A DNA stretch of 63,999 nucleotides, filler included, from Candidatus Babelota bacterium (GCA_017999075.1; 13 parts of 13 records of this genome joined end to end with filler, not necessarily neighbours in it); one strand, 5' to 3'. Positions 3,235 to 17,892 are shown, counted from the whole stretch's first letter. Notes: generated by a model not told the origin, from the letters alone. Translations and numbers: made by a program.

Positions 3235-3390
3235 TACAATAATTTTTGAGTTCATTTGGTTAACCTCCTAAATATTTTGACTGGTTGTAACAGTCGCTAT
3301 ATATTTTGCGAGGTTAACCTTTTTTAGTCAACTTTTTTCATTTTCTATAATATAGCAAGCTCTGCGGTTAAAAAAATATTTAATTTATTT

Positions 3391-3417
3391 TGCAACCTTT
3401 CCATAAAAAAACTGTAT
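3391..3417 (+). promoter_or_regulatory. ECF-type promoter motif copy 1 (TGCAAC-N17-GTAT), upstream of clpP-like gene
   Basis: TGCAAC 3391-3396, GTAT 3414-3417; same motif and spacing at five other intergenic sites. Confidence 0.7.
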
Positions 3418-3451
3418 AACAATTACAAAGTCAATTTGAGGAGGTTTTATT

Positions 3452-4003
3452 ATGAGCGGTAAAAATAATGACGAGAACAAAAAAAAAGAACTTGACGGTC
3501 TGCTTTTTTTGAGCGGCGCAGTATCAGCGGAAGGTATTTGCAGAGATATTATTCGATTGAATGTCGAGAACGAAGCGCCTGTGATACAATTGATTATCAA
3601 TTCGCAGGGCGGTTATTGTTCGGAAGGTTTTGCAATTATCGATATTATGGAATGGTCGAAAATTCCTGTATATACTACTGGTATCGGTATGATTGCGTCA
3701 ATGGGTTTATTGATTTTTATGGCCGGCGAAAAAGGTCACAGGGTAATAACTCCGCGCACTTCTATTTTATCGCATAGATATTTTGGCGGCGCGATAGGTA
3801 ATCATTCAAGTTTGATAGCCGCGCGTAAAGAACAGGATTTAATGCATCAAAGGATAATCAATCATTATTTTCAGCATTCAAAAATAACATCTGAAGATGA
3901 ATTGAATAATACGCTGCTGCGCGATGTTGATACTTGGTTGACGCCCGACGAATGTCTTAAATACGGGATTGCTGATAAAATACAGCAGGATATGAAGCGT
4001 TAG
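3452..4003 (+). CDS. ClpP-like serine protease (peptidase S14), divergent accessory copy
   Basis: LIINSQGG, GMIASMG (catalytic Ser), ILSHR (His), RDVDTWLTPDECLKYGIADKI (Asp region); GGAGG RBS. Confidence 0.9.
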   Translation: MSGKNNDENKKKELDGLLFLSGAVSAEGICRDIIRLNVENEAPVIQLIINSQGGYCSEGFAIIDIMEWSKIPVYTTGIGMIASMGLLIFMAGEKGHRVITPRTSILSHRYFGGAIGNHSSLIAARKEQDLMHQRIINHYFQHSKITSEDELNNTLLRDVDTWLTPDECLKYGIADKIQQDMKR

Positions 4004-4012
4004 AAAATAATA

Positions 4013-4245
4013 GCCGATTGACGGATAGGCGGATAGGCGGATAAGCGGATAAGCGGATTGGCGGATAGGCCGATAAGCGGATTGACTAATTTTTAATTAT
4101 TAAAGTTTTGAATGTTTAGTTTTGAGTTTTGAGTGTTGGAAAATTAGTTTATAAAGTTTATAAGGTTCGTAAAGTTTGGAGTTAATAAAATTATTGATTG
4201 ACAACTGATGACTGGCAACTGATGACTGACAACTGATGACTGACT
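4013..4245 (+). repeat. Block of short tandem repeats (8-mer GCGGATA[G/A], 7-mer TTTTGAG, 9-mer AAAGTTTAT, 14-mer CAACTGATGACTG[A/G])
   Basis: Directly visible between the clpP-like stop and the ATPase RBS. Confidence 0.9.
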
Positions 4246-4295
4246 TCGTACTTCGCGCATCGCGCAATAAATTAAATTTTTGGAGGTTATACATT

Positions 4296-6386
4296 ATGGC
4301 AAACAACGATAAACAAAAAGAAAATAATAGCGGGATTATACCAGCCGCGCTGCTTGATTTAATGTCTGAACTTGTGAACAAATATATTGAACGGTGTGAG
4401 TTGTGGCAGGGTCAGCCGCAGAAAATCGAGCAGTTGACTAATTTAAACGAAAGTATAAAAAACATTGAATCGCAGATATTCGCGTTTGATTATCAACCGC
4501 TGAATTATACATTAAATCAGCTTAAATTTTCTGAGGTTGAAAGACGCCTGTTTATTCTGATATTTGTTTTAAAAACAGAAAATTCGCTGATGAAAAAAGC
4601 GAATGAAAAAGTTGAAAAAATCATTAAATCAAGCAGAAATAATTTGACGGCAAATACACTATTATCAATATTATTTGAATCTTATTCTGACAGGATAATC
4701 AACCGCAAACTTTTTTCAACTGAATCATCAATAATAAAAAATAATATTATTACTATGGAATCTAATGCTTATGAAAATATGCCGAACTGGGAAATTGAAA
4801 TGAATACGCGATTTATGAATTATATACTCGGCGATAATAATCTTTATGCGACAACTGATTTTTTGAGTATTGAAGAAAGCCGCGTTTCATTCGATTCCGT
4901 GATAATTGAAGACGCGATAAAAAAAGATATTATTGATGCGCTCGATAACTACGACGAATATCAAAAACGAATCAGCGTTTTGAAAGAAAACGGAGTTTTT
5001 GAATACGGGATCGGTTATACATTTATGTTTTACGGTCAATCAGGCGTAGGCAAGACAATGCTCGCGCACGCAATAGCAAAATATCTAAACAAAAAAATTA
5101 TTACTTACAAATCTAATAAAAATTCTGATAATGTTCCATTCAGAAGACACAGAAATATCGAAGAACAGTTGCCGCGTCTATTTCTTGAAGTTGCGTTGCA
5201 TAACGGTATATTGTTTTTTGACGAATGTTCAGAATTATTCAAGAAAGAAACGCAGGAAAGCAGAGAGCTGCTGATACAACTTGAAAAAAGTAATGTGATT
5301 GTTATTTTCGCGACTAACAATTTAGTTGATTTATCGCCGGCCCTTGAACGCCGGATACTTTTCAAATACAAAATCAAAGCGCCTGATTTGAATAACCGCA
5401 TTAAACTATGGAATCATTTCCTTACAAAAAGCGGGATTACCGGCGTTAAAAAAGAACTTATCGAAAAAATCAGCGCGCGCTATAATATGCCCGGCGGATT
5501 TATCAAGAATGCCGCGCTAAAATATATCAACTCAAAAATCAGCGGCGTCATTAATGGTGCTGAACTTGAAAAAATAACGGAAATATATTACAATCGTTAT
5601 ATTGAGAGTTCGTTTGTATTGAAGCAATCCGATCCCTCGGCATTTGATGAAAAACATTTTGAATCAATAAATGCTGAAATTAAAAACTCGCTTGATAAAA
5701 TTGTAGAAGCCGCGCGAATGCTTTATTCTATTGAAAACATAAATAACTGCAATATGCCGAGTATTAATGTAGTTATCGCAACAGCGGGCGAACATAGCGC
5801 GAATAGATTATCTGAATATATCATTAATAAATTGCAGCGGTCATTTATTAAATTCGGGTTAAACTATAAATCCGACGAAGAATTTGAATCTGATTATAAG
5901 AAAAAATTCATCATCAGTTATTTGCAGGCGGACGCGCTCGAAGATATCCGCGATACGCGGCCTGTTATAGTTTTTGATCAGCTCAAAAAAAATAATGATA
6001 AATATAATGTCCGCGAAGAATATGCGGAATGTCTTAAAAAAATGACGCAGAATGTCGGGATATTGCGGATAATGCTGATATCGCATAAAACAGATAAGGA
6101 TTTATTTGATGATTTTAATCCTGATTTTTTTGTCAGATTCCGCGATGATATTAAGCCCGCTGATACAATCGATAAACTGCTTAAACATAATAATATTCAG
6201 ATTGATTCAGCGCTTAAAACTCAGATTATCGATGATTGCAATAATCCGAAACAGATGCTTAAATTCAAAAAAATTGTTCAACTCTATAAACTGCAGAATC
6301 ATCAGAAAGAACCGCGTAAATTCAACGATTATATTGATATGATGTTTTTCAAAGAATTAGCTTTTGACGCGCCGCTGTTCGGCTGA
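4296..6386 (+). CDS. AAA+ ATPase (about 696 aa) with helical N-terminal region and a probable degenerate second AAA domain
   Basis: Walker A GQSGVGKT, Walker B LFFDE, sensor FATN, Arg finger ALERR, PGGFIKNA. Start moved to ATG 4296 because GGAGG lies at 4282; the track start lies inside the repeats. Confidence 0.88.
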   Translation: MANNDKQKENNSGIIPAALLDLMSELVNKYIERCELWQGQPQKIEQLTNLNESIKNIESQIFAFDYQPLNYTLNQLKFSEVERRLFILIFVLKTENSLMKKANEKVEKIIKSSRNNLTANTLLSILFESYSDRIINRKLFSTESSIIKNNIITMESNAYENMPNWEIEMNTRFMNYILGDNNLYATTDFLSIEESRVSFDSVIIEDAIKKDIIDALDNYDEYQKRISVLKENGVFEYGIGYTFMFYGQSGVGKTMLAHAIAKYLNKKIITYKSNKNSDNVPFRRHRNIEEQLPRLFLEVALHNGILFFDECSELFKKETQESRELLIQLEKSNVIVIFATNNLVDLSPALERRILFKYKIKAPDLNNRIKLWNHFLTKSGITGVKKELIEKISARYNMPGGFIKNAALKYINSKISGVINGAELEKITEIYYNRYIESSFVLKQSDPSAFDEKHFESINAEIKNSLDKIVEAARMLYSIENINNCNMPSINVVIATAGEHSANRLSEYIINKLQRSFIKFGLNYKSDEEFESDYKKKFIISYLQADALEDIRDTRPVIVFDQLKKNNDKYNVREEYAECLKKMTQNVGILRIMLISHKTDKDLFDDFNPDFFVRFRDDIKPADTIDKLLKHNNIQIDSALKTQIIDDCNNPKQMLKFKKIVQLYKLQNHQKEPRKFNDYIDMMFFKELAFDAPLFG

Positions 6387-6394
6387 TAATTTTC

Positions 6395-6443
6395 CGCCGG
6401 ACTACAATTTGATTTTGATTGTCGTCCGGCATTATTTATTTTT
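6395..6443 (+). terminator. Probable intrinsic terminator after the ATPase
   Basis: GCCGGAC-TACAAT...ATTGTC-GTCCGGC stem followed by a T-rich tract. Confidence 0.55.
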
Positions 6444-6713
6444 CGAATTAAATATAGGATTTGATAGAATTTCTTAACACGGATGTAAACAGATTAAACG
6501 GATTTAACGGGTTGTATATTGTAGTCGCGAATTTTAATTCGCATCTTATAACGCCGATATAAAATCGGCGATTACAAAAATACGCTTTATTATGAGAAGT
6601 GTCGATATTTTCAATTATAAGAATAATTTCTACTTTCCGTTTCTGCGTCAAATAACTGAAAATATATATTTTAAGGTAATGCTTAAGTGAACGCTGGCAC
6701 TTGCCATAATAAA

Positions 6714-6770
6714 TGTAGAAAACCCTTTAGGGTTGCTTTAAAAAATAGCAATGCTAAAGCATTTTTTACA
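6714..6770. repeat. Double-hairpin palindromic element, copy 1 (inverted copy at 12155-12210)
   Basis: TGTAGAAAACCCTTTAGGGTTGC...GCAATGCTAAAGCATTTTTTACA. Confidence 0.75.
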
Positions 6771-6795
6771 TTTTATTTACTTATTCGAAAGTCCC

Positions 6796-6883
6796 AATTT
6801 CAAATAACCGCAGGCGCGACCTGTGGCAAAAATAACTTAAGTGACAACCCTGAACAATGTTGAATTTTATATTAATTTGAAAT
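6796..6883 (+). repeat. Direct repeat A, copy 1 (REP-like hairpins)
   Basis: About 88 nt, near-identical to 9159-9246. Confidence 0.9.
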
Positions 6884-7002
6884 CCTATACTTATCAAAAT
6901 CGTTTTTTGAATTTATTTATTGACTGGTGATTTCATCAACGGCTATGTAAAATTTGACGATTTCAGCGTCGTAAATTTTTAAGAAAATCAATATTTCATT
7001 TA

Positions 7003-7057
7003 AAAAAACATCACATATTTTGCAACTGTTTTAGATAATTTGCGTATAATTATTAAA
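7003..7057 (+). promoter_or_regulatory. Direct repeat B, copy 1, containing ECF-type promoter copy 2
   Basis: TGCAAC 7021-7026, CGTAT 7043-7047; 50/55 identical to 9320-9374. Confidence 0.75.
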
Positions 7058-7075
7058 GATTGGAGGTGATAAAAG

Positions 7076-7384
7076 ATGTTTGAGATAGACGCTTATGATT
7101 TATTCGAAATTTTAAAAAAAACTGACAAACACAAGTTTTATCAATTTGAAGGAGATATTTATAAAATTATAAATGAAATCAAAAAAATTTCAATTGACAA
7201 ATATATTACATATAATTGCGTATTGAAAGTTTACATTTCCGAATCATTAAAATTGGCGGAGACTGAAAAAATCGCCGGAGAAATTAATCAATACATTTTA
7301 ATTAATGAATTAATATTTAACGCTGAACATACTAAAAATTTATCCGATAATAATATAAAATTGGAATTGTATTTATTTTACTGA
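7076..7384 (+). CDS. Small protein resembling a stand-alone FtsZ/tubulin C-terminal domain
   Basis: Strong GGAGGTG RBS. EIDAYDLFEILK resembles FtsZ NLDFADVRTVMK, and VLKVYISESLKLAETEKIAGEI...LIFNAEHTKNLSDNNIKLELY resembles GVLMNITGG.NLSL.EV..AA..V...MIFGSVINENL.DEI.VTVI. By-eye pattern match only. Confidence 0.5.
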   Translation: MFEIDAYDLFEILKKTDKHKFYQFEGDIYKIINEIKKISIDKYITYNCVLKVYISESLKLAETEKIAGEINQYILINELIFNAEHTKNLSDNNIKLELYLFY

Positions 7385-7451
7385 TTGATTTTTTTATTTG
7401 GTTAATTTGGTTAATCTATGTTGTAATAAAACAAGGATTGACCGTATTAAC
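7335..7451 (+). repeat. Direct repeat C, copy 1 (includes the last 15 or so codons of the 102-aa ORF)
   Basis: 117 nt, 2 mismatches to 10331-10447. Confidence 0.95.
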
Positions 7452-7580
7452 TATAAAAATATTTTTGACACTAATTGCGCTAATTTTCACAAATTTATAA
7501 TTTAAAATTATGTTTTTAGTTTGATTTATATTGAAGTTTAAAATATATTTTTAAACAAATAATTTTTATAGAGGAAAAAT

Positions 7581-8315
7581 ATGAAACAACAACATTGTCC
7601 GCACGATAGTTGGGCAAACTATTACGATTTTGTTTATGAAACAACATATGGAGTTTTTTACAAAAATATTACTGAGCAATCTTTGAATATTATTGAAAAT
7701 GTTCTGCCGACGGGCAAAATCCTTGATATGGGCGCCGGGACAGGGCGAATGTCAATACCATTATCCAAGAAAGGATACAATATTACAGCAATTGAACGCA
7801 GCGCCAATATGTATAAAATACTAAAACAAAAATCTAAACAAAATAATATTGATATCAATATATTAAATTTGCCTATTCTTGATTACAACGGTTCTGAAAA
7901 TAATATGGTGTTATGTCTTTTTACTGTATTAAATTATATTTTAGACGAAGATGAATTAGAAAAAACTATTTCTATAATAAAAAATTCATTAGTAAATAAT
8001 GGGTATATTTTTTTTGATATAGCAGAAAAAGTATTTTTTAATATACGACAATTAATAAATATTAATCGTGATTATTTACAAAGAAAGGTAATTGTAAACC
8101 CGACGGATGTTAAAGATATTTATTCTTATACAGAAGAATGCGGCGGTATTTTCAATGGTCAGTCATTTAAATATACTGATGAATTTAAAATCAGATATTG
8201 GGAACCTGTCACAGTAATAAACAAATTTATTGATGCGGGCTTTGAAATATTTAGCGATTATTCCGAGCAATTTAAAAATACTGGCTCCGCATATTTTGTA
8301 TTGAAGAAAAAATAA
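7581..8315 (+). CDS. Class I SAM-dependent methyltransferase
   Basis: ILDMGAGTGR motif I; WANYYD N-terminus; NNGYIFFD. Confidence 0.9.
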   Translation: MKQQHCPHDSWANYYDFVYETTYGVFYKNITEQSLNIIENVLPTGKILDMGAGTGRMSIPLSKKGYNITAIERSANMYKILKQKSKQNNIDINILNLPILDYNGSENNMVLCLFTVLNYILDEDELEKTISIIKNSLVNNGYIFFDIAEKVFFNIRQLININRDYLQRKVIVNPTDVKDIYSYTEECGGIFNGQSFKYTDEFKIRYWEPVTVINKFIDAGFEIFSDYSEQFKNTGSAYFVLKKK

Positions 8316-8343
8316 AAATTATTAAAATTATAGGAGTGTCAAA

Positions 8344-9081
8344 ATGCATGGAAAAATTCTTAATTTTTATGAAAGTGTAGTATCTTGTGACAGTAATAAC
8401 AATATTTGCCCAAGAACTGAAAAGAATGATTCGACACCGCCACGCGGTTTTTATAGTCGTGGAGTTCCGAGCAAAATAGATATTATGGTAATCGGTAAAA
8501 ATCCAGGGCATTTGCTTTGTGACGAAAATGGAAATGAGGCACAACTATATGAAAATCACACACCAAGAGAAAAAGCGGAAATTATATTTTATAGCAATAA
8601 TAATAATATTAATATTAATGTTGAATTTAACGACCCATTATCTCAAAAATTTCATATAAATTTATTTAGATATTTAGCTTATTTTTTAGATATTACAGAT
8701 AAATTAAAAACTTATTCTGATTTTAAAAATTCAGAAAATCGGCATCAAATTTCTGAAAACACATTAGAAAAATGTCTTATAACAAATTTAGTTAAATGTC
8801 AGACAATAACGGAAAAAGAAAAACTTAAAGCCCCTACAAAGCAAAATTGTTTAAATAAATTTTTATGTGATGAAATTAGATTTTGGCAACCAAAAGTAAT
8901 TCTTTGTTTAGGTTCTGAAACAGATCCATTTATCAAAAATAAAATCAAAAAAATTAATGATTTAGAAAAATATTCAAATAAATTTGTTCAAGTTAGACAT
9001 CCTTCATATTTTTATGCAAGAAATAAAGAACAACAAGAATTATGTAAAATTAAAAGTCAAATAACTGAAATTCTAAGTTAA
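8344..9081 (+). CDS. Uracil-DNA glycosylase superfamily protein
   Basis: IMVIGKNPG (motif A), ITNLVKC, QPKVILCLG, VRHPS (motif B). Confidence 0.8.
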   Translation: MHGKILNFYESVVSCDSNNNICPRTEKNDSTPPRGFYSRGVPSKIDIMVIGKNPGHLLCDENGNEAQLYENHTPREKAEIIFYSNNNNININVEFNDPLSQKFHINLFRYLAYFLDITDKLKTYSDFKNSENRHQISENTLEKCLITNLVKCQTITEKEKLKAPTKQNCLNKFLCDEIRFWQPKVILCLGSETDPFIKNKIKKINDLEKYSNKFVQVRHPSYFYARNKEQQELCKIKSQITEILS

Positions 9082-9138
9082 TAATTTTTTTATATTAATT
9101 TTTTTAAAGTAATTTATAAATGATATTTAAGAATAATC

Positions 9139-9246
9139 GACAACCGCGAATGCGGTTGAATTTCAAATAACCGCAGGCGCAACCTGTGGCAAAAATAACT
9201 TAATGTGACAACCCTGAACAGGGTTGAATTTATATTAATTTGAAAT
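9139..9246 (+). repeat. Direct repeat A, copy 2, with an extra 5' hairpin
   Basis: CAACCGCGAATGCGGTTG, CCGCAGGCGCAACCTGTGG and CAACCCTGAACAGGGTTG hairpins. Confidence 0.9.
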
Positions 9247-9319
9247 TCGACCCTTATAAATTTTCAAACGCCATAAATGTTTAATGTTTTATAAAATCCA
9301 CATTACTGCACAAAAAATT

Positions 9320-9374
9320 AAAAAACATCCGATATTTTGCAACTGTTTTAAAGAATTTGCGTATCATTATTAAA
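9320..9374 (+). promoter_or_regulatory. Direct repeat B, copy 2, containing ECF-type promoter copy 3
   Basis: TGCAAC 9338-9343, CGTAT 9360-9364. Confidence 0.75.
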
Positions 9375-9405
9375 CCAAGAAAATTATATTACGAGGTGCT
9401 TATAA

Positions 9406-10332
9406 ATGAACGAAAATGTTTCTGATAAAAATGAAGAACACGAGTATCTGCGCATCAATACATTATTACCGGATATAATCAAAAAAATTGAAAATAGGTA
9501 TGTCGAACAAAATCCTATTAATGGCGTGCCTACGGGATTTAGAGCATTAGATGATATGACATCGGGTTTTCAAAATTCCGATTTGATAATAATTGCCTCG
9601 CGTCCGTCTATGGGTAAAACAAGTTTAGCGCTCAATATTGCATATTATGCAGCGCGCGTAGAAAACATTCCGGTTATGATTTTTAGTTTAGAATTAAATT
9701 CTAAAAATCTTATTTTCCGGCTTATTTCAAATGCTGCAATAATTGAGCTTAAAAAAATTATGAACGGTTTATTAAACAATAGTCAATGGGAACGCTTGAT
9801 TGAGGCAAGCGAAATATTATATCAGTGTCCCGTCTATATTGATAACAGCGATAATATCGATATTATTTCAATTATTGATAAAATAAAAAAATTAAAACAG
9901 GAAAAGAATATAGGGTTAGTTATTATTGATTATTTGCAATTAATAAAAGTGGATAATATTGAAGCCGAAAATAATGACCAAGTATTAGCTAAAATTTGCC
10001 GCGCGTTGAAAAACACTGCTGAAATAACTGAAATACCGATTATTGTATTATCGCAGTTAAAAAGACCGCCGGAATCAAGAATTAAACAACCGCCGCTCAT
10101 TGTTGATTTAGATGAATCGGGTATTATCGAAGAAATAGCGGATGTGATATTGTTGATGTTCAATGATAAAAATTATCCGATTTCAAGAGTCAAAGGAATG
10201 ACCGAAATTAATATTGTCAAACACAAAAATGGACCGCGCGGAAAAATATATTTGCATTTTCTTGAAAAATTCTCGAGTTTTGAAAACTATGATAATACTG
10301 ATTATTTCGATGATTACTTGGTGAATCATTAA
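9406..10332 (+). CDS. DnaB-like helicase, C-terminal ATPase domain only
   Basis: GVPTGF..LD.MT.G, ASRPSMGKT, FSLE, IIDYLQL, LSQL.R, DL.ESG.IE..AD, K..NGP.G. It is 308 aa and has no N-terminal domain. Confidence 0.92.
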   Translation: MNENVSDKNEEHEYLRINTLLPDIIKKIENRYVEQNPINGVPTGFRALDDMTSGFQNSDLIIIASRPSMGKTSLALNIAYYAARVENIPVMIFSLELNSKNLIFRLISNAAIIELKKIMNGLLNNSQWERLIEASEILYQCPVYIDNSDNIDIISIIDKIKKLKQEKNIGLVIIDYLQLIKVDNIEAENNDQVLAKICRALKNTAEITEIPIIVLSQLKRPPESRIKQPPLIVDLDESGIIEEIADVILLMFNDKNYPISRVKGMTEINIVKHKNGPRGKIYLHFLEKFSSFENYDNTDYFDDYLVNH

Positions 10333-10447
10333 AATTTATCGGATAATAATATAAAATTGGAATTGTATTTATTTTACTGATTGATTTTTTTATTTGGTTA
10401 ATTTGGTTAATCTGTGTTGTAATAAAACAAGGATTGACCGTATTAAC
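10331..10447 (+). repeat. Direct repeat C, copy 2
   Basis: Begins at the dnaB-like stop codon; 115/117 identical to 7335-7451. Confidence 0.95.
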
Positions 10448-10463
10448 CAAATTATTTGGATAC

Positions 10464-11027
10464 TTAAAAAAACCGAGTAAATATACCCGCCAAAAATCTT
10501 AATGTAAAATTACATTTCTCGAATTGTTTTTCCATTGAATATTCCATCTCGCGCAATCTTTTATTTACGGACGAATAAAAATTAATTTTAAAACTATTGT
10601 CAACAGTAACCGGAAATATAAACAACCGCAATATTTCACGCGCATCAATTTTCTGCTCCAAATATTCGGCAGCGGAATAACCGGACGGCACGCCGTTTTT
10701 ATTATAACCTGCAAATATCAGCGGAATAAAAGCTTCGTTGATATTTTTGTTTTCAATCAATTCATTCCAGTGTTGACCGGGCAAAGCGAACGGAATACCT
10801 AACGCTGGTTTAACCGGATTATAAAACGAATATTCCATCGGCATCAGTTTTTCTTCGTCCTGCATTCTTTTAATAGCAGCATCAACTGATTTTAATAAAT
10901 TGAAAGAAACAAGCGTTTCAGCTATTTCTTTAAAAACGCCGGCTTTATCAGTTGCTTTTAATTCATTAGTATAAAAAACATTAATCTTTTTATGTGCACA
11001 TTTTATTATTGAATATTTTTTTGTCAT
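10464..11027 (-). CDS. Degenerate PTS EIIA (Fru/Ntr-type)-like protein
   Basis: ELKATDKAGVFKEIAETLV...EEKL...GIPFA...AGYNKNGV...RLFIF follows the EIIA pattern (L.A..K..V..ELA.LL...RE.L...AIPHA...GRS.EGI...HLIF). Start moved to ATG 11027 (GAGGA RBS). Confidence 0.5.
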   Translation of the reverse strand: MTKKYSIIKCAHKKINVFYTNELKATDKAGVFKEIAETLVSFNLLKSVDAAIKRMQDEEKLMPMEYSFYNPVKPALGIPFALPGQHWNELIENKNINEAFIPLIFAGYNKNGVPSGYSAAEYLEQKIDAREILRLFIFPVTVDNSFKINFYSSVNKRLREMEYSMEKQFEKCNFTLRFLAGIFTRFF

Positions 11028-11040
11028 TTGAATATTCCTC

Positions 11041-11092
11041 ATAATTCGGAGTATTCGGTGGTTTATTTTTACCACCGAATGTTCCGAATTAT
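11041..11092. repeat. 22-bp inverted repeat between two co-oriented genes
   Basis: ATAATTCGGAGTATTCGGTGGT / ACCACCGAATGTTCCGAATTAT, 20/22 Watson-Crick pairs. Confidence 0.85.
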
Positions 11093-11098
11093 ACCGAT

Positions 11099-11698
11099 TT
11101 ATTGTTTCCGCGTATTTTCTTCGATTGCAATAAACACAGGCACGCAAAGAAAAATTATAAAAAACAAAAGTCCTAAAACAGCCGCTGCCGCAGTATATAA
11201 TTTCTGATCGCCGGCTTCAGCTTTATTTGTCTTTTTTTCTTCAAGCATCTCAAAAAACAGGTTTCTATGAGCATTAAACATATCAGCGGCAGTAATACCT
11301 TTTTTATGCGTTTTTTCATATTCAAGCGCCTGATTAATGAATTTTACTGTTGAACTCAGAAAATCGTTTCTGTGTTCTTCAGGCACGCTTATTAAAATAT
11401 CAAGAACAATATTGTAATTTTCAACGCCAATATTATAATTTTTTATTATCTCTTTTAATCTGTCTGAATATAATTTCTCGACTGATTGGCGTTCGTCAAT
11501 CTGTTTGAAATCAGTTGCATTCTGTTTTTCTTCTTCAAAATAACCTTTGATAGAATCAAATGACGGCATCTGTGTTTTTTTCTCTGCTGTGAAATAACCG
11601 ATTGCTGAAATAAGGATTATCACTAAACTCACAACAATAAAAAAAAGCGATACCATTTTCCCGAAAACAAACAACTTACCATAGATAAACTTAAACAT
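11099..11698 (-). CDS. Hypothetical membrane protein (N- and C-terminal TM helices)
   Basis: Two hydrophobic segments flank a helical loop; AAGGAG RBS before ATG 11698. Confidence 0.75.
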   Translation of the reverse strand: MFKFIYGKLFVFGKMVSLFFIVVSLVIILISAIGYFTAEKKTQMPSFDSIKGYFEEEKQNATDFKQIDERQSVEKLYSDRLKEIIKNYNIGVENYNIVLDILISVPEEHRNDFLSSTVKFINQALEYEKTHKKGITAADMFNAHRNLFFEMLEEKKTNKAEAGDQKLYTAAAAVLGLLFFIIFLCVPVFIAIEENTRKQ

Positions 11699-11742
11699 AA
11701 ATAGACACACTCCTTAAAAAAATTTAATTTACATATCTATAT

Positions 11743-11769
11743 ATACGCGCTTTTCAAAATTTGGTTGCA
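11743..11769 (-). promoter_or_regulatory. ECF-type promoter motif copy 4
   Basis: Minus strand TGCAAC(11769-11764)-N16-CGTAT. Confidence 0.7.
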
Positions 11770-11863
11770 AAAAAAATTTAATTTACAATAATATAGTGCA
11801 GAGTGCAGAGAAAGATTTAAGGATTAGTGATATATAACAAAATCAAATTGACAAAATAATTTT

Positions 11864-12082
11864 AAACCGCATTAGCGGTTTTATGTATATAGCCGCAGGT
11901 TTTTCAAAAACCTGCGGTATAAAAACAAAAAATCAAATCAACCCCAGCGGGGTTGTATGTAAAAAACAACAACGAGTATTTTTTTTACATACCGCTACGC
12001 TGTAGCGGAAATTTAGTTGTTAGTTATTTCCAGCGGTTTTTTCAAACCGCTGGTTACAAACATTAAACACCTCCGGCGTTTG
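11864..12082. repeat. Cluster of REP-like hairpins
   Basis: AAACCGCATTAGCGGTTT, CCGCAGGTTTTTCAAAAACCTGCGG, CAACCCCAGCGGGGTTG, CCGCTACGCTGTAGCGG, CCAGCGGTTTTTTCAAACCGCTGG. Confidence 0.8.
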
Positions 12083-12114
12083 AGAGATTTTGTCAATTTA
12101 TTTTCGTTACATAA

Positions 12115-12244
12115 AACTATTCAGCAGTATAAACGCAGAAACATTGAATTTTATTGTAAAAAACGCTTTAGCGTTGCTATAATAAAAGCAATCCTAAAGG
12201 ATTTTCTACAGTTTTTGCGCTAAAAATTATACTGTTGAACAGTT
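12115..12244. mobile_element. MITE-like element with 18-bp terminal inverted repeats enclosing palindromic element copy 2
   Basis: AACTATTCAGCAGTATAA ... TTATACTGTTGAACAGTT (16/18); internal double hairpin at 12155-12210. Confidence 0.5.
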
Positions 12245-12484
12245 ACATTTTTTTAAAATTAAAATATCTTAATCTTATCCTGTATAATCCTGTTATCCTA
12301 TTAAAATATGATTTTATACTTATTTAAAAAGAATATTCAGTTCAAGAAAAATTTCAACATTGTGTTGTAAAGTTTTAGATGTATAATCGCGAACAATCTG
12401 TCAAAGTAAAATTTGCTTAAATTTATTGGAACAATTTCTGACTGCACTCCCGAGCGCAGAGCGCAGATAATAATATTTATTTTT

Positions 12485-12511
12485 TGCAACCGTTAATTAA
12501 ATTTAGAGTAT
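12485..12511 (+). promoter_or_regulatory. ECF-type promoter motif copy 5
   Basis: TGCAAC 12485-12490, GTAT 12508-12511. Confidence 0.7.
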
Positions 12512-12560
12512 AAATAAGTATATAAGTTAAAAATTTTATTAAGGAAAAGGAAATAGCAAT

Positions 12561-12878
12561 ATGAAAAACATTTCAAATTCTAATAACTTTGATATTGAAA
12601 ATGCAAACGAAATAAACGACTATAAGGTAACAGTAAGAAAATTTACAATCATAAGCGGTGAATCTTTAAATGTCTTTCTCTGTTATGCGAAATGTGAAGA
12701 CAATATTATTGAAAATATAAAAATTATTGAAGATTTATTTGCCGCAAAGAAAAGTTTATATTTCGAAGGACAGATTATATGTCCGGTGTGTAACGAGATA
12801 CTTGATTATAAATATTATGATAGTGGTTATCTTGATGGTTGCTGCAGAACAGAAAACTGTTTAAATTGGAAGGAATAA
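12561..12878 (+). CDS. Small hypothetical protein with C-terminal Cys cluster (probable Zn finger)
   Basis: GQIICPVC...GCCRTENCLNWKE. Confidence 0.65.
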   Translation: MKNISNSNNFDIENANEINDYKVTVRKFTIISGESLNVFLCYAKCEDNIIENIKIIEDLFAAKKSLYFEGQIICPVCNEILDYKYYDSGYLDGCCRTENCLNWKE

Positions 12879-12960
12879 TATGAGTAATGTTTTAATTTTT
12901 TGAAGTTAAACTAAAAGGTATCTCGTATGATATTATTTAGTGTCAGCGCCACTACAAATA

Positions 12961-14127
12961 TCAAATCATTTCTTCTACCAAACTTAAAAATCCTATTGAA
13001 TCATCGCTTAGTTTCATTAATTTTGATTTGTAATCATTTTTTGGAGTTGGCGGTAAGGCATCTAATTTATCTTTTAAAAAAAACATCTCCACTGAATATA
13101 AATAATCAAGAACCCGCGCGTCAATCACGCCGCATTTTTTTAACAAATAATAGCATCTCACACGAATATCAGTGTCTGGATTCAATACCAAATATGAAAT
13201 TTTTTCTATAAGTATTTCTTTTTCATCTCTATCGCCCAATATCAAATTTTTATTTACGCGATCGATTTTTAATATGTTCTCGATAAGTTTTACTTTGTCA
13301 TCTCTTGTGTCTAATACATCAGTTTTATTTACTTTATCGATTGTTAAAATATATTTGTAATAAGTGAACAATAGTTGCGAATGTATCCACATACACAGAT
13401 GATTACCCAAATCAATTTCCGGTTTGCTGTTTAAAAAATTTAAGAGCAGCAATGCATTTTCAAAATCATCATTATTCAGAGATTTTTTTTCAGCGATATC
13501 TGTTGATAGCAGATAATTAAATATTATTGATGTGTAAAACAGTAATTTTGAATACTCTATGCAGCCGTCCCTAAACCCGAAATATATTTTATCATATTCT
13601 TCGGATTTTTCAGAATTATTGTCTTTTACTATCAAATTTAATTTAGGATGTTTAGTTAAATAATCCTCTTTTAATTGCGCGTGATTAAAAAAAATTGATT
13701 TATGACAAAGCATCATTTTCATAAATAACTCGACAAACATTTGCGGGTTCGCGCATACTTCTTTTTTGGAAATATTATGAATATTGTTTATGATATTTTC
13801 ATATTTATTTATATTATGATTATCAAATATTTTCGGAAAACATTTATAAATAAAAGCATAGTTGATACGTGGCGGCAAATATTCCTCGGGAACAGTGAAC
13901 TCTTTTTCTTCTGAAAATGAATATTCGAAAAGTTTTATATGGATGAGATTTTGACAATCAGGTTTACTTAATATTTTTCTATCTGTTTTTTGTAAGAATT
14001 CGAGGAATTCAGCGCAGTTAAGTTCTTTTACATAGTGTGACGCAAATCCGGAATTTATATACGCATCAACCATTTCTTTTTCAATTAACGAAAAATAGGC
14101 AATTTTTGTTGCACAGTAATCACACAT
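12961..14127 (-). CDS. Hypothetical protein (helical, N-terminal CxxC)
   Basis: 388-aa ORF with AAGGA RBS; no family recognised. Confidence 0.7.
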   Translation of the reverse strand: MCDYCATKIAYFSLIEKEMVDAYINSGFASHYVKELNCAEFLEFLQKTDRKILSKPDCQNLIHIKLFEYSFSEEKEFTVPEEYLPPRINYAFIYKCFPKIFDNHNINKYENIINNIHNISKKEVCANPQMFVELFMKMMLCHKSIFFNHAQLKEDYLTKHPKLNLIVKDNNSEKSEEYDKIYFGFRDGCIEYSKLLFYTSIIFNYLLSTDIAEKKSLNNDDFENALLLLNFLNSKPEIDLGNHLCMWIHSQLLFTYYKYILTIDKVNKTDVLDTRDDKVKLIENILKIDRVNKNLILGDRDEKEILIEKISYLVLNPDTDIRVRCYYLLKKCGVIDARVLDYLYSVEMFFLKDKLDALPPTPKNDYKSKLMKLSDDSIGFLSLVEEMI

Positions 14128-14151
14128 TGTTTGTTCCTTTAAATTTTTTTT

Positions 14152-14841
14152 TTAATTTTTTTTATATAATGCGCGCGGTATATCGTGCATACCTTCTTTT
14201 CGATTAAAATCAGAAATTTGGTTGTATCCTTTCCAGCAATCAGTACCTTCAGATACATATAAATAATTCGGTAAATTATTTTTTGCAATTTTATATAATT
14301 CTGAGATGATTTCAGGATTAGGACCTACCAAGCCGTGTTTCTGTAAAACTGTTATTTCAGGTTTTGCGTTGTTTTGCGACCATATAATATTATAGGCGTT
14401 TCTGCCGTCAAAAAATAAATACAACAGACAAATATCTTTTCCGAATATTCTTAAAAAAGATATAAAACCAAGTATATCTGCGTTTTCAATAGATTCCGAA
14501 TATTTGAATTTTATATTTTTGCTTATATTAAAAATATCGGATTTATAAATAGGTTTAGTATCAAGCAATCTGCAACCGGAATATTTTTTGTTAATATGAT
14601 TTATAATTTCGTTGCAGTCAATAGTTTCAAGTGCGCAGTATATATATAGCGGAATATCCGTATTTTCAGCAAACAGCAAAAGCGGATCAATATCGCGGCC
14701 TGCGCCCAAATAAAACAACGAAGGCAATTTTATAAGTTCCTCAATCTTCAATCTTTCTAATCTTTCTTCAGATTTAAAGTCCGGCATTGTTTTTAAACAT
14801 TCTTCAATCTGTAATAAATTTTTTTTCTGTTTTTCTGACAT
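14152..14841 (-). CDS. Hypothetical protein, possible Rossmann/methyltransferase-like fold
   Basis: LFYLGAGRDIDP glycine-rich loop; GAGGA RBS. Confidence 0.6.
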   Translation of the reverse strand: MSEKQKKNLLQIEECLKTMPDFKSEERLERLKIEELIKLPSLFYLGAGRDIDPLLLFAENTDIPLYIYCALETIDCNEIINHINKKYSGCRLLDTKPIYKSDIFNISKNIKFKYSESIENADILGFISFLRIFGKDICLLYLFFDGRNAYNIIWSQNNAKPEITVLQKHGLVGPNPEIISELYKIAKNNLPNYLYVSEGTDCWKGYNQISDFNRKEGMHDIPRALYKKN

Positions 14842-14916
14842 AAAAATGTCCTCCTATTTATTTTTACTATTATATCATATTTTAGTTAAAAAACCAAATC
14901 TATAATTAATTGATAA

Positions 14917-15135
14917 CTAATTACATATATTTTTAGTATTTATGCAAATTGATAAATAACCATTGCTTATCAAATTTTTATTTTTTTTTAACAGCGGATA
15001 ATCCGGTATATTTAATTTCAAATCATTAGCGTAAATCAACTCTTTAATACGCGCTTTAATGTCCTGGATATTTATATAAACAATTTTTTCAGTTATGCGT
15101 TCAATACCGCCGAAATCATCATTTGATATTTTCAA
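14917..15135 (-). CDS. Small hypothetical ORF or gene remnant
   Basis: 72 aa, TTG start with no RBS, directly behind promoter motif copy 6. Confidence 0.3.
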   Translation of the reverse strand: MKISNDDFGGIERITEKIVYINIQDIKARIKELIYANDLKLNIPDYPLLKKNKNLISNGYLSICINTKNICN

Positions 15136-15149
15136 TTTTATATTTGATT

Positions 15150-15176
15150 ATACTATGAAATCAAGGAATGGTTGCA
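15150..15176 (-). promoter_or_regulatory. ECF-type promoter motif copy 6
   Basis: Minus strand TGCAAC(15176-15171)-N17-GTAT(15153-15150). Confidence 0.65.
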
Positions 15177-15225
15177 AAAAATTGATTATTATGAGAGATA
15201 AATTTCAGATAAGTTGGAAGTATTA

Positions 15226-15486
15226 TTATTCGTAATGAGTCCACATACGAATTATTTTAATGGTTTTAATATCTGGCAAAATTTCATAAACCAATCTGTG
15301 TTGAATATTTATTCGCCGCGAATAAGCGCCTGATAAATCACCCATTAATTTTTCAGAATAAGGCGGCTGTTGATAGGGATTGCTTTTAAGTATATCAAGT
15401 AAATATTGCGTTTTATTTTTTAATCCCGCTGATGATATTTTTAGCGCATCTTTTTGAGCTTGTTTGGTATAAACAATATTCCACAT
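15226..15486 (-). CDS. yoeB: Txe/YoeB-family toxin
   Basis: NPYQQPP..EKL.GDLSGAYSRRINIQHRLVY...IIRMWTHYE. Confidence 0.95.
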   Translation of the reverse strand: MWNIVYTKQAQKDALKISSAGLKNKTQYLLDILKSNPYQQPPYSEKLMGDLSGAYSRRINIQHRLVYEILPDIKTIKIIRMWTHYE

Positions 15487-15492
15487 CTCATC

Positions 15493-15732
15493 TTACCATT
15501 TTAATGATTCGGAACATTCGTTAATCGGAGTTTTAAGCCCTTTCTTGATACTTTCGGTCATTCCTGTTATTGATTGCAAATATAAAGTTTCGGATATAGC
15601 CCGCCAGTCCTGCTCTGATAGTAAAACGGCATTTTGTCGGCCTGACAAAAATACGGGTTCATTTATTGTAGATACTTTTTTGATTAATCTGTTAATACTT
15701 GTTTTTGGTTTATTAACATCAACTACTATCAT
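15493..15732 (-). CDS. yefM: Phd/YefM-family antitoxin
   Basis: EPV.L.G..NAVLLSE.DW.AI.ETLYL.SI.GM.ESI..GL.TP; directly upstream of the toxin. Confidence 0.92.
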   Translation of the reverse strand: MIVVDVNKPKTSINRLIKKVSTINEPVFLSGRQNAVLLSEQDWRAISETLYLQSITGMTESIKKGLKTPINECSESLKW

Positions 15733-15787
15733 AATACCCCCCCTTTAATTTGTTATTTAATATACTAATATTTAATAAAAAAACAAG

Positions 15788-17269
15788 TTAAGTTATAGTT
15801 AATGTTTCCAATTCACGCAAAATATGAATAAGCCCTTCAGTATCGAGTTTGCAGTATTCAAGCAGATTTCGGCGTGTTTTATTTTTATCAGCTTCAGCTA
15901 CTTCAGTAAAAGCAATGCGCATATATTCATTTGACGCAAACAGACCATTGGATATTTCCAAACCGGAATATGATTTGCCTGTAAGCGCCGGCAACACTGC
16001 TTTGACAGACGCGCTGCCCTTCTGCGCCGGATGATAATAATGAAAGGAATTGAACGGCGCGAACAAATCAACAAAACGCGGTAAAATACTATTAACCCAA
16101 TTTTTAAATTTAGGATATGCGTGCGCATTTTCTTTTAGCCGCAACTTTTCAAAACTCATATTATACGCCATTATAGATCCTTTATTGCCGATTAATTTAT
16201 ATAATGATTCCATTATTTCAATGCGCGGATCGCCATCGCCAGACGCAAGATATTCAAAATGCTGCGGCGCGCTATTCAACTCATTCACAATATGCAATGA
16301 ATACTGGAATGTAACCTGCACATACGGTTTGATTTTATCAAATAGCGGCACCGCAGTGCTGAATGTCTCGAAATCAAGTATATACAATGGAAATTCTAAT
16401 TTATTCAGAAATTTTTTTAGGGCGGGTTTATCAATATGCGGCTGACAGGTTTGCGCTGTCTGCACTTGTATTTTATGAGTTTTATTCAATTCAACGCTGG
16501 CAGGTATATTAGCAAGTTCAAAAATGCCGTCTCTGATAAATTCATACGCTTTTTTCTTAGCGCGGCGCAACTGAAAAATACTGTAATTCTTGCCTGCATA
16601 TTCATCGCACAATTTAGAATACAGCGGACAATGATATGGGAAAAAACAATGGTCGCCGCATTCGATACGCGGTGTTTTTTTCTGATTCATAATCGTGCTG
16701 AAATCCATTATCATTTTTTCAATTTCAGCCATTATTTCCGCGACTTTTTTTGTAATATCAATTTTTACGAACAGATTATTAATATCAAGTTCGCCGCAGC
16801 GTTCGTAATTTTTATTTATGTGCATTATAAAACATTTGTTGATTTTTATGCCCGCGCCTTCGCAGCAATATCTTTGGAAAGCAACATCAAAAATATGAAT
16901 ATCTTTTACAGCATTAGCGCTTTTGACTTCAATAATATCAAACTTACCTGATTTGACAGGCGCGAGAATATCGTTTCTGGCAAAACCATTTCCAAAGACA
17001 AATCCGGGTTCAAATAATGCTTTACACGAATTCGAAAATTTTTGTGTTTCAGCAATTCCGTTATCAAAACCGTTTTCCCAATTGATTTCTATTCCGTCAG
17101 GAAACATTTGTTTAGCATATTGTCCAACCATCAACCCTTGGTCAAATGCTGATTGTTCGTTTGAATTTTCAGCTAACTGCGCTTTGTCATTGCAGAAATA
17201 CCATAATAATTTCGCGCATTGCGCGCCTTTCAAAAATGTAGTTTTTGTTAGATATTTTTTTGTTATCAT
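15788..17269 (-). CDS. DUF2779-domain protein (PD-(D/E)xK nuclease-like N-terminus, RNase H-like C-terminus)
   Basis: G.QC.K.LW, ARNDIL...IIEVKS, D.AFQ.Y, Cys cluster, LDFET...PY.Q..FQYSLH, LLEYCKLDT. Confidence 0.85.
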   Translation of the reverse strand: MITKKYLTKTTFLKGAQCAKLLWYFCNDKAQLAENSNEQSAFDQGLMVGQYAKQMFPDGIEINWENGFDNGIAETQKFSNSCKALFEPGFVFGNGFARNDILAPVKSGKFDIIEVKSANAVKDIHIFDVAFQRYCCEGAGIKINKCFIMHINKNYERCGELDINNLFVKIDITKKVAEIMAEIEKMIMDFSTIMNQKKTPRIECGDHCFFPYHCPLYSKLCDEYAGKNYSIFQLRRAKKKAYEFIRDGIFELANIPASVELNKTHKIQVQTAQTCQPHIDKPALKKFLNKLEFPLYILDFETFSTAVPLFDKIKPYVQVTFQYSLHIVNELNSAPQHFEYLASGDGDPRIEIMESLYKLIGNKGSIMAYNMSFEKLRLKENAHAYPKFKNWVNSILPRFVDLFAPFNSFHYYHPAQKGSASVKAVLPALTGKSYSGLEISNGLFASNEYMRIAFTEVAEADKNKTRRNLLEYCKLDTEGLIHILRELETLTIT

Positions 17270-17593
17270 AAATCAAAGCATAATACTGTTATACTGCAAT
17301 TACAGATTAAAGTTTGCAGATTATCAGAAAAAATTAATTTTTTCAATTTAATATTATAATTCATTTTTGTTAAATATAATTTCATTTCAGGAAAAATGCG
17401 ATATATTTTTATATTATGATTTCAGTTCCCTCTCTCAACCCTTAAACTTCCTATCCAAGCACCGTGGCATGATTTCTTTTTTGTAACCTGTATTTTAAAA
17501 TCATTGCTCAAAATGCTTTTGACAGCCGCACTTTATATTCACTTTATGACTATATTTTAATATTATTCCACCACCCATTTGATTGATTTAAAT

Positions 17594-17792
17594 TTAAAAA
17601 TAAATACTGTCTGCTATCGAGCTTTTATCTAAATCATCATCTATTAATCTCTGCATATATCGCCGGCTTGAAATAACGCCTGTTTCTAATATCTCAATTA
17701 TCACATACGCCAAATGTCTGTCATAACTGCCAGGCTGAATAATATGCGCTCTGCCTAATGTATTTTCCCATATTCCTGTAACAGTCGGCGAT
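17594..17792 (-). CDS. 3' fragment of a gene, possibly a metallophosphoesterase/5'-nucleotidase-like domain
   Basis: Hand translation ...RAHIIQPGSYDRHLAYVIIEI...SIYF*; cut by linker. Confidence 0.4.
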
Positions 17793-17892
17793 NNNNNNNN
17801 NNNNNNNNNNNNNNNNNNNNNNNNNNNNNNNNNNNNTTAATTAATTAANNNNNNNNNNNNNNNNNNNNNNNNNNNNNNNNNNNNNNNNNNNN

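Follow-up and report, generated by a model that had tools for sequence, protein, structure and literature searches.

A candidate sigma-controlled accessory island with altered relatives of core proteins in an uncultured Babelota bacterium

Contig C70 of a draft genome from an uncultured wastewater bacterium, Candidatus Babelota bacterium (GCA_017999075.1; here G000), carries an island of six transcription units that are each headed by the same rare promoter motif, and several of them encode shortened or altered relatives of core proteins that form oligomers. The island encodes a ClpP-like peptidase together with an AAA ATPase, a DnaB without its N-terminal domain, and a 102-amino-acid (aa) protein that is predicted to fold like the C-terminal domain of FtsZ. 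We read C70 as part of a strain-specific accessory regulon that would be gated by a sigma factor and a protease and would serve defence or dormancy, and we put the probability of this reading at about 0.45, a little under even odds. The island was analysed within a stretch of 63,999 nucleotides (nt), here called the window. Since N-runs carrying the six-frame stop linker TTAATTAATTAA lie at window positions 3135-3235 and 17793-17893, the window is a pseudomolecule of separate contigs and the genes flanking C70 are not neighbours of the island, which lies wholly on this contig (14,558 bp; window positions 3235-17792; 0.38% of G000). The genome is 87% complete, with 2.6% contamination, and comprises 3.83 Mb in 594 contigs; for comparison we used the three nearest genomes, G001 (same genus, 97% complete), G002 and G003. 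The stretch is also present in wastewater and digester metagenome runs from four studies.

An initial annotation of the sequence had proposed a co-regulated set of truncated or altered copies of core proteins. The motif, a likely co-regulation, and the presence of cut-down or altered core-protein relatives were borne out by our analysis; the recurrence of the set elsewhere and a catalytic truncation of ClpP were not. Its idea of co-regulation gains from a candidate regulator, and its idea of dominant-negative subunits or decoys is plausible as a hypothesis. That annotation had recognised no described system of this make-up, and none was found in open-access papers and preprints.

Promoters of the six units

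The motif noticed ahead of the six transcription units was confirmed and could be sharpened to TGCAAC-N17-GTATAA (P1 to P6 in Table 1). The sequence TTTTGCAAC occurs 59 times in G000 when both strands are counted, and 6 of these copies are on C70. A slightly relaxed pattern, TGCAAC-N17-GTAT[AC][ACT], matched 13 sites in G000, where its reversed control had no match; G001 gave 0 matches (reversed control, 5), G002 gave 1 and G003 gave 2. When the distance between the two blocks was varied, N16-17 yielded 18 matches and the other spacings 1 to 6. Eleven of the 13 matches are promoter-like, with six on C70, three on contig C277 and two on contig C434, and the two remaining matches, on C191 and C497, are without the T-rich lead-in. 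When the 11 sites were aligned, only TTTTGCAAC (the -35 block) and gcGTATAA (the -10 block) carried information. About 90% identity over 55-63 nt is common to the sites at window 7021, window 9338 and C277 3800, and these three are therefore duplicates, whereas the other eight promoter-like sites have just the two blocks in common. A ribosome-binding site and a start codon follow at 41-62 nt downstream of five of the six C70 copies.

According to a published account (PMC5758882), promoters of sigma factors of the extracytoplasmic function (ECF) type are marked by AAC in the -35 block and by CGT or CGTA in the -10 block, and ECF sigmas usually drive their own genes. Across the 11 sites we found AAC in the -35 block, a CGT-type -10 block and fixed spacing, and CGTA was read at 7 of them; judged from sequence, the motif is thus laid out like a promoter of this class. 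We rejected a plain sigma-70 or a Bacteroidota-type promoter: a -35 block of TTGCAA would leave a spacer of 19 nt, and the sites are absent among those listed by a generic promoter scan. Since the six units have a real and rare promoter type in common, their co-regulation is likely.

A candidate regulator on C277

One of the C277 motif copies (3835-3863) lies about 60 nt before the start, at 3922, of a gene for a 445-aa protein with sigma regions 2 and 4 (PF04542, PF08281) and an extra C-terminal part of about 250 aa, which we call the sigma-fusion. It scored 71.1 bits on TIGR02937 (cut-off, 42.9), and the end of its gene overlaps the start of a gene for a 900-aa TPR-CHAT protein (5252-7954). 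G000 has 8 sigma70-family genes over the cut-off, and only the C277 gene is on a motif-bearing contig. Because ECF sigmas usually drive their own genes, the C277 sigma would be the one that reads the motif, and it is the likely regulator of the motif-bearing units.

The combination is not confined to this contig. A CHAT gene also comes after the paralogous sigma-fusion on C50, which is 31% identical. On contig C56 of an unrelated genome, G017, a TPR-CHAT gene comes after the gene for a distant 418-aa relative, next to a divergent gene for an AAA_2 ATPase; the pair therefore exists outside the Babelota lineage studied here. The CHAT gene follows in three of four cases (C277, C50 and G017), and next to the fourth sigma-fusion, in G016, the open reading frame (ORF) has no assigned family and no CHAT call. 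No hydrophobic segment was found in the sigma-fusions, and in the separate TPR-CHAT protein hydrophobic windows occur only inside the CHAT domain. His and Cys motifs were read by eye in both CHAT proteins. Of the specific NCBIfam names, those for the type III-E CRISPR sigma (E 3e-11) and for Csx29 (E 1e-10) came nearest, far below their cut-offs. A scan with the sigma-fusion over genome contigs found only generic Bacillota ECF sigmas at 27-29% identity, and no relatives of it were found in viral contigs.

A second C277 motif copy faces the opposite way, to a 357-aa gene that matches PDC-S11, a defence candidate in PADLOC (E 2e-26). At C277 276-1122, a motif copy is followed by a small ORF and a SAM-lyase-like gene (PF23780), and this unit is adjoined by a Doc toxin with a MazE-type antitoxin (1451-2076). 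On C434, an IS110-family transposase is followed by the two motif copies, which stand before a gene for a 314-aa protein; a DUF7663 protein and a 260-aa protein are encoded further on.

The ClpP-like/AAA pair and its sister operons

Unit P1 encodes the ClpP-like peptidase and the AAA ATPase, and the initial annotation was right in both calls (PF00574 and PF00004; Table 1). It had also counted the peptidase among the truncated or altered copies, but the protein is not truncated in any catalytic sense: Ser (ASMG), His (LSHR) and Asp align with the host ClpP, and the protein is shorter by about 13 residues at its N-terminus. Its identity to both housekeeping ClpP copies is 31%, and it reached 81 bits on TIGR00493 against a cut-off of 308.6, so orthology to housekeeping ClpP, its N-terminal axial region included, was not supported. 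In the AAA protein, a winged-helix domain at the N-terminus is followed by a classical AAA core and about 300 aa of C-terminal sequence; its true start is probably 4296 and not the longest-ORF start at 4236. It matched the IetA/IteA models with E values of 4e-14 and 2e-15 over about 240 residues, below the cut-off; on NF042959 it scored 56.8 bits (cut-off, 510), which does not place it in the IetA/IteA family. If the two proteins do work as a pair, a classical AAA ATPase with a ClpP-type peptidase would be an undescribed architecture of an ATP-dependent protease. Between the two genes lies a spacer filled with about ten GGCGGATA-like 8-mers and three 14-mers, each kind in tandem; it differs in length from sample to sample, and in contigs from another study it is shorter or replaced.

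The pair recurs in the genus. A paralogous pair on C204 has 73% aa identity in the ClpP-like and 45% in the AAA protein, and a copy in G001 has 80% and 56%, respectively. The ratio of nonsynonymous to synonymous change (omega) was about 0.05-0.11 for the ClpP-like gene and about 0.16-0.20 for the AAA gene, with synonymous divergence saturated. An alignment scan of metagenomes with the AAA protein found only the G001 contig, no relatives of it were found in viral contigs, and tblastn against phage and plasmid collections gave matches to the core only, in 16 phage and 167 plasmid records, and none over the full length.

The G001 operon (C74 1377-6908) encodes, in order, a piece of the FlhA loop, the ClpP-like protein, DnaA domain III, the AAA protein, a 113-aa ORF and a DUF6745 protein. 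The FlhA piece belongs to a membrane protein of 142 aa; its residues 7-64 correspond to the conserved loop of FlhA (50% over 40 aa). The DnaA gene, which occupies the counterpart of the C70 spacer, encodes domain III alone (235 aa; TIGR00362 positions 101-319 of 437; E 9e-66). The C204 operon (3671-9387) consists of a 621-aa family-A exonuclease/polymerase, a 363-aa protein whose residues 78-150 match the zinc-finger region of PolC (NF001688, E 1.5e-12), the ClpP-like protein and the AAA protein. In all three ClpP-like/AAA operons of the genus, as read from sequence, the protease pair thus adjoins pieces or variants of core machines; the motif search found no motif in either the C204 or the G001 operon. 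The C204 polymerase has three further paralogs in G000 (C330, C205 and C458), two of which are apparently split. A weak phmmer match of the G001 113-aa ORF to V-ATPase subunit E (E 0.014) was not used.

A DnaB without its N-terminal domain

The product of unit P3 (DnaB_C) was confirmed as a DnaB that has lost its N-terminal domain. It begins at the position of residue 151 of the host DnaB and therefore keeps the linker helix and the RecA-type domain; it covers positions 141-434 of TIGR00665 with 307.7 bits, below the cut-off of 385. A search of G000 for the N-domain (PF00772) matched only C460 and C116, and no N-domain remnant was found upstream of DnaB_C. Walker A (GKT) and Walker B (IIDYLQL) are kept. 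In a 10-sequence alignment, DnaB_C alone deviates at R236 (DLRESG to DLDESG) and at Q243 and D244 (IEQDAD to IEEIAD), and it is also the sole deviant at R190, Q192, E193 and other positions. We take the Arg of DLRESG to be the arginine finger. The C-terminal fragment of Escherichia coli DnaB forms hexamers and has ATPase activity and no helicase activity.

Among 7,574 relatives of DnaB_C (E <=1e-10), the nearest were full-length DnaB proteins of the lineage (51%), the next reached 46% and the rest 39-45%; on this comparison, DnaB_C derives from the host lineage's own DnaB. Against the host DnaB, the proportion of nonsynonymous differences (pN) was 0.31 and that of synonymous differences (pS) 0.70, which is not the pattern of neutral decay; the corresponding omega of about 0.19 is rough because synonymous sites are saturated. 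A third G001 DnaB was rejected as an ortholog, because the Arg is present in this full-length protein and its identity is no more than 33-36%.

Two checks named in the initial annotation also came out in its favour. Full-length ftsZ, dnaB and clpP, two of each, were found elsewhere in G000, and pN is far below pS for the ClpP-like, AAA and DnaB_C genes, so that these are not decaying. Of 26 coding variants seen in other samples, 19 were synonymous.

A 102-aa protein predicted to resemble the FtsZ C-terminal domain

The first gene of unit P2 encodes an orphan. Among 5.8 billion proteins of 56 to 179 residues, a search for relatives returned only the 102-aa protein itself, and no Pfam match was obtained even at E 10. 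In single-sequence AlphaFold2 (AF2) predictions, the five models had predicted local distance difference test (pLDDT) values of 76.7, 70.9, 43.0, 40.5 and 39.9, and the best shows a short helix followed by strand-helix-strand-helix-strand-strand. With this model, the rows listed by Foldseek against the PDB were all FtsZ except for one TubZ (best E 3.1e-5; template-modeling score 0.66-0.74). VIA-align superimposed model residues 2-102 on Thermotoga maritima FtsZ 218-327 with Z 10.0 and a root mean square deviation of 3.6 over 100 residues, and 50 of the 50 entries shown were FtsZ. In a wide search of 48,161 chains, a Z of >=8 was reached by only two, both FtsZ (9.2 and 8.9), and the runners-up were CetZ2 (7.8), Rid/YjgF (7.3) and TubZ (6.8). 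Among solved folds, the C-terminal domain of FtsZ is the best match to the predicted model.

The FtsZ likeness noted in the initial annotation thus held at the level of the predicted fold and not at that of the sequence. BLASTP against both host FtsZ proteins found nothing, hmmsearch against the FtsZ C-domain gave 5.8 bits over the last third (model 57-105 of 112 against residues 48-96), and neither membership in PF12327 nor an N-terminal GTP-binding domain was found. By eye, the N-terminal EIDAYDL may resemble the T7-loop NVDFADV of the host FtsZ. A complex prediction with host FtsZ residues 24-335 scored 0.01, which speaks neither for nor against binding. In a run of a different study, two contigs jointly cover the gene with two silent changes, E3D and F21V, and no stop or indel was listed. 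G000, G001 and G002 each have two FtsZ genes (C90 and C545 in G000) for proteins of about 393 aa and about 322 aa, and the shorter FtsZ is without a C-terminal tail.

The 102-aa gene and dnaB_C have upstream and downstream flanks in common at 90-98%. The last 50 nt of the 102-aa gene with the downstream hairpin (7335-7451) are repeated at 98% right after the dnaB_C stop (10331-10447). From this arrangement, the two genes appear to sit in one promoter-terminator frame, as if swapped within a copied cassette.

A possible mode of action and its alternatives

If C70 belongs to an accessory regulon, the C277 sigma would read the motif at all eleven near-identical promoters, and the CHAT protease may free or activate the sigma in response to a cue, for instance infection or stress, by analogy with DdvA-DdvS and Craspase-Csx30-RpoE. 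All motif-bearing units would then be switched on together. The ordinary part of the cargo would be YefM-YoeB, the methyltransferase, the enzyme of the uracil-DNA glycosylase (UDG) fold and the Cas4-like nuclease, with PDC-S11, the SAM-lyase-like protein and Doc from C277. The look-alikes would be the FtsZ-C-like protein and an Arg-less DnaB ring domain without the primase-binding N-domain, and they would be delivered together with a dedicated IetA-like AAA ATPase and a ClpP-like peptidase. The look-alikes may engage the native FtsZ polymer and the DnaB ring, join these assemblies and spoil them; the protease pair may degrade the native assemblies or keep the look-alikes in check. The outcome would be a fast stop of division and replication, reversible or suicidal. 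A defence flavour comes from the IetA/IteA-like AAA protein and from PDC-S11 behind the motif.

A more novel proposal, which we regard as unlikely, is that the protease-gated sigma switches on domain-sized copies of FtsZ and DnaB, with DnaA, PolC and FlhA at the sister loci, as new immune or dormancy effectors. The copies could then work with the AAA/ClpP-like protease as poison subunits, as adaptors that deliver the native machines to the protease or as baits for phage take-over proteins, three roles that sequence does not separate. Should the look-alikes indeed spoil FtsZ and DnaB or guard them, cells would have a simple and evolvable form of self-arrest built from their own parts, and division and replication inhibitors of natural origin would be at hand. 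Sigma-TPR-CHAT pairings are known from two defence settings, and little is known of their targets; in G000, the eleven near-identical promoters directly show the presumed ones.

Several observations weigh against the accessory-regulon reading. The C277 sigma is linked to the motif by position only, and C70, C277 and C434 are separate contigs of the assembly. Searches of G001-G003 did not turn up the motif, the sigma-fusion, the 102-aa gene or DnaB_C, and the recurrence of the set behind the motif that the initial annotation had envisaged was not found in G001; conservation can thus not back the regulon. The IetA, Csx29 and type III-E sigma scores are all far below the family cut-offs. For the 102-aa protein, only two of the five single-sequence models are confident, Rid/YjgF folds reach Z 6-7.3 against 9.2 for FtsZ, and hhalign against 28 FtsZ C-domains gave a nonsignificant E of 0.12. 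The role given to the missing DnaB Arg is putative, several cargo genes have no assignable role, and no RNA run is among those listed as containing the stretch.

An alternative that we rate as unlikely is that C70, C277 and C434 are plasmid, integrative or phage-like pieces with their own sigma and motif programme. The DnaB-like, ClpP-like and AAA proteins would then serve replication or maintenance, and the toxin-antitoxin systems, the methyltransferase and the SAM-lyase would serve addiction and anti-restriction. The failure to find the motif and the sigma-fusion in the same-genus genome G001 would fit such an element, as would the IS110 transposase next to the two C434 motifs, the two toxin-antitoxin pairs with the SAM-lyase-like gene, and the contigs from other samples that end at several positions inside the island. 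The PHROG matches point the same way: the ClpP-like protein matches a head maturation protease (E 4e-30) and DnaB_C matches phrog_243, a 273-position DnaB-like profile. However, no integrase, relaxase, replication initiator, capsid, terminase or tail gene was found on C70, C277 or C434; no AAA or sigma relative was found in viral contigs; and in the 16 phage and 167 plasmid records with a match to the AAA core, none of the matches is full-length. The G+C content is 30.7% for C70 and 30.2% for G000, the hairpin repeats are common to five contigs of G001, the nearest relative of DnaB_C is the host lineage's own DnaB, and a DnaB without the Arg and the N-domain is a poor candidate for a working replicative helicase. 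We read the island as chromosomal and variable, and possibly as element-borne.

It is distinctly improbable, in our view, that the look-alikes are harmless baits that mimic those surfaces of FtsZ, DnaB, DnaA, PolC and FlhA that are attacked by phage take-over proteins, which would be soaked up, handed to the AAA/ClpP-like pair for destruction or used as an alarm. The core-protein pieces in or beside all three ClpP-like/AAA operons of the genus and the descent of DnaB_C from the host DnaB suit such a guard, and FtsZ bound by a phage protein is reported as a known trigger of a bacterial immune protein (PMC13423816). But no phage partner is known, and nothing ties the winged-helix domain of the AAA protein to the look-alikes. 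Moreover, a bait has no need to lose the conserved Arg and other near-invariant DnaB positions, and a bait that is useful constitutively needs no inducible ECF promoter.

Highly improbable is a lack of any joint function, with a promoter-bearing repeat duplicated in a variable region that collects fragments and look-alikes that are recombination leftovers staying open: P2, P3 and one C277 copy do lie in 55-63-nt stretches of about 90% identity, the flanks of the 102-aa gene and dnaB_C are alike at 90-98%, and the 102-aa and 187-aa proteins are orphans, but the other eight sites are alike in the two promoter blocks only, DnaB_C has stayed open over 308 codons at 49% aa divergence with pN far below pS, the ClpP-like and AAA genes are strongly constrained, most coding variants from other samples are silent, neither a stop nor a frameshift was seen in the 102-aa gene, and each gene has its own ribosome-binding site at normal distance.

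Comparison with known systems

With its two genes for an ATPase and a protease, and with an AAA protein that matches the IetA/IteA models, unit P1 resembles the anti-phage system IetAS / IteA. IetS is a subtilisin-type protease. The C70 unit differs in that its AAA protein is about twice as long, the partner is ClpP-like and not subtilisin-like, and the protease gene comes first.

The regulatory layout is a variation on the known pairing of sigma factors with TPR-CHAT proteins; the cargo may be new. In Myxococcus xanthus, the ECF sigma DdvS and the TPR-CHAT-bearing anti-sigma DdvA are reported to control an island with a cyclic oligonucleotide-based antiphage signaling system (CBASS) and CRISPR (PMC11506125). 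In both cases an ECF sigma is tied to a TPR-CHAT protease-like module, the distribution is narrow, and a whole accessory island is switched on from several sigma-dependent promoters (P1-P4 there according to that report, eleven presumed ones here). DdvA, as described there, carries TPR-CHAT as the periplasmic part of a single-pass membrane anti-sigma with a cytoplasmic zinc-binding, sigma-binding domain, whereas the sigma-fusion of G000 is without a hydrophobic segment and its TPR-CHAT protein is separate, which is not the make-up of a DdvA-type anti-sigma. The cargo differs as well: CBASS and type III-B CRISPR are described for DdvS-DdvA, and C70 carries a protease pair and core-protein look-alikes.

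In type III-E Craspase, the gRAMP with the TPR-CHAT protein Csx29 is reported to cleave Csx30, which is bound to the sigma RpoE (PMC9729208). As there, a sigma gene adjoins a TPR-CHAT gene, and a protease that releases a transcription response, as in that report, would be the feature in common. However, the G000 sigma scored 43.7 against 100 bits and the Csx29 candidate 41.2 against 300 bits, both under the cut-offs; no match to a RAMP protein (PF03787) was found in the 87%-complete genome, and no csx30 or csx31 was recognised. Instead, the C277 sigma has a C-terminal extension of its own of about 250 aa.

A Streptomyces coelicolor genomic island with a self-contained ECF sigma regulon (bioRxiv 10.1101/247056) is, as reported, likewise a strain-specific island that carries an ECF sigma with its targets. 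It differs in organism and cargo, and the accessible part of that report mentions neither a protease gate nor look-alikes.

In open-access papers and preprints we found no FtsZ C-domain and no Arg-less DnaB ring domain that occurs naturally as a separate gene product and acts as an inhibitor. To our knowledge, the known FtsZ inhibitors are not FtsZ-derived folds, in which they would differ from the 102-aa protein. SulA and MciZ, which cap or sequester FtsZ (PDB titles 1ofu and 4u39), and the C-terminal fragment of E. coli DnaB are like the proposed look-alikes in being small proteins or fragments that engage the polymer or ring of a core machine and stop it.

Remaining genes and features of the island

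Table 1. Features of the C70 island (window positions).
Feature	Position	Strand	Remarks
Promoter P1	3391..3419	+	TGCAAC-N17-GTATAA, 32 nt before the start codon of the ClpP-like gene
ClpP-like peptidase, 183 aa	3452..4003	+	PF00574, 114 bits (cut-off 20.2)
Spacer, 292 bp	4004..4295		Tandem 8-mers at 4004-4090, 14-mers at 4195-4242
AAA ATPase, 696 aa	4296..6386	+	PF00004, PF22977; ATG behind GGAGG
Promoter P2	7021..7049	+	Inside a 55-nt stretch 91% identical to P3 and a C277 copy
102-aa orphan	7076..7384	+	Predicted FtsZ C-terminal-domain fold
S-adenosylmethionine (SAM)-dependent methyltransferase, 244 aa	7581..8315	+	No motif of its own; PADLOC mad2, E 1.5e-14
UDG-superfamily protein, 245 aa	8344..9081	+	PF03167, 33.9 bits, over cut-off; no motif of its own
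Promoter P3	9338..9366	+	
DnaB_C, 308 aa	9406..10332	+	Linker helix and C-terminal RecA-type domain only; PF03796, 265 bits
187-aa orphan, second in unit P4	10464..11027	-	Residues 22-65 weakly similar to N-terminal PTS EIIA type 2
Membrane protein, first in unit P4	11099..11710	-	Two hydrophobic stretches
Promoter P4	11741..11769	-	
Promoter P5	12485..12513	+	
105-aa protein, unit P5	12561..12878	+	Cys pairs; no family found
Unit P6	12961..15135	-	Small ORF 14917-15135, 229-aa protein 14152-14841, 388-aa protein 12961-14127; no family
Promoter P6	15148..15176	-	
YoeB toxin	15226..15486	-	Upstream of P6
YefM antitoxin	15493..15732	-	Upstream of P6
DUF2779 protein, 493 aa	15788..17269	-	PF11074, 138.5 bits; upstream of P6

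The standard bacterial code fits C70; genetic code 4 was rejected, as it lengthens wrong-frame ORFs only. An end overlap of C70 was looked for and not found, and an Rfam scan of the contig gave no family. Short GC-rich hairpin arrays lie between genes at window positions 6700-6900, 9130-9260 and 11860-12220, and the unit at 9131-9255 recurs on the five G001 contigs at about 80% identity.

In unit P4, the membrane protein likely starts at an ATG 15 nt inside the listed ORF, and it is weakly related to the 314-aa protein behind the C434 motif. The second product, of 187 aa, had been annotated as an EIIA-like protein of the phosphotransferase system (PTS) without the phospho-His. It is an orphan, also in a full HMMER scan of 1.8 billion representatives. 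Weak but concordant leads favour an EIIA-like N-terminal region: the match to PF00359 had an E value of 0.06 (13.8 bits; cut-off, 27), the ten best Atlas feature matches were all PTS EIIA type 2 (score 0.77, the level of a lead), and a profile of our own from 25 stand-alone EIIA sequences of related genomes gave 16.6 bits, with a maximum of 5.0 in 300 shuffles. By hhalign, the probability was 65% over residues 22-65 only, and the alignment ends before the His loop, which could not be aligned. Because the AF2 model was unusable (pLDDT 36), the loss of the phospho-His rests on a by-eye reading of GIPFALPG where G-x-A-x-P-H is expected. The EIIA-like sequence call is thus weakly supported. A weak phmmer match of the same protein to a radical-SAM protein (E 0.011) was not used.

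For the 388-aa protein of unit P6, an Atlas search gave weak helical-repeat leads only (0.76), and a weak phmmer match to a CNNM transporter (E 6e-4) was not used. Searches of PDB sequences by phmmer with the 187-aa and 229-aa proteins gave chance-level matches only.

The YefM-YoeB pair, the UDG-fold protein of unit P2 and the DUF2779 gene named in the initial annotation all passed the Pfam or NCBIfam cut-offs and look like ordinary island genes. In unit P2, the UDG-superfamily protein, which matches family-4 UDG models weakly, comes last, after the 102-aa orphan and the methyltransferase, which the initial annotation had not named. YoeB scored 85.7 bits on TIGR02116 (cut-off, 51.8) and YefM 30.1 bits on PF02604 (cut-off, 29.8), and the two genes are adjacent with the antitoxin first. 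The N-terminal part of the DUF2779 protein is a Cas4-like nuclease (PADLOC Cas4, E 1.5e-5), and a homolog with 70% nt identity is present in G001. At G001 C54 6219-7768, this homolog is split into two overlapping ORFs of 141 and 382 aa, possibly by a frameshift.

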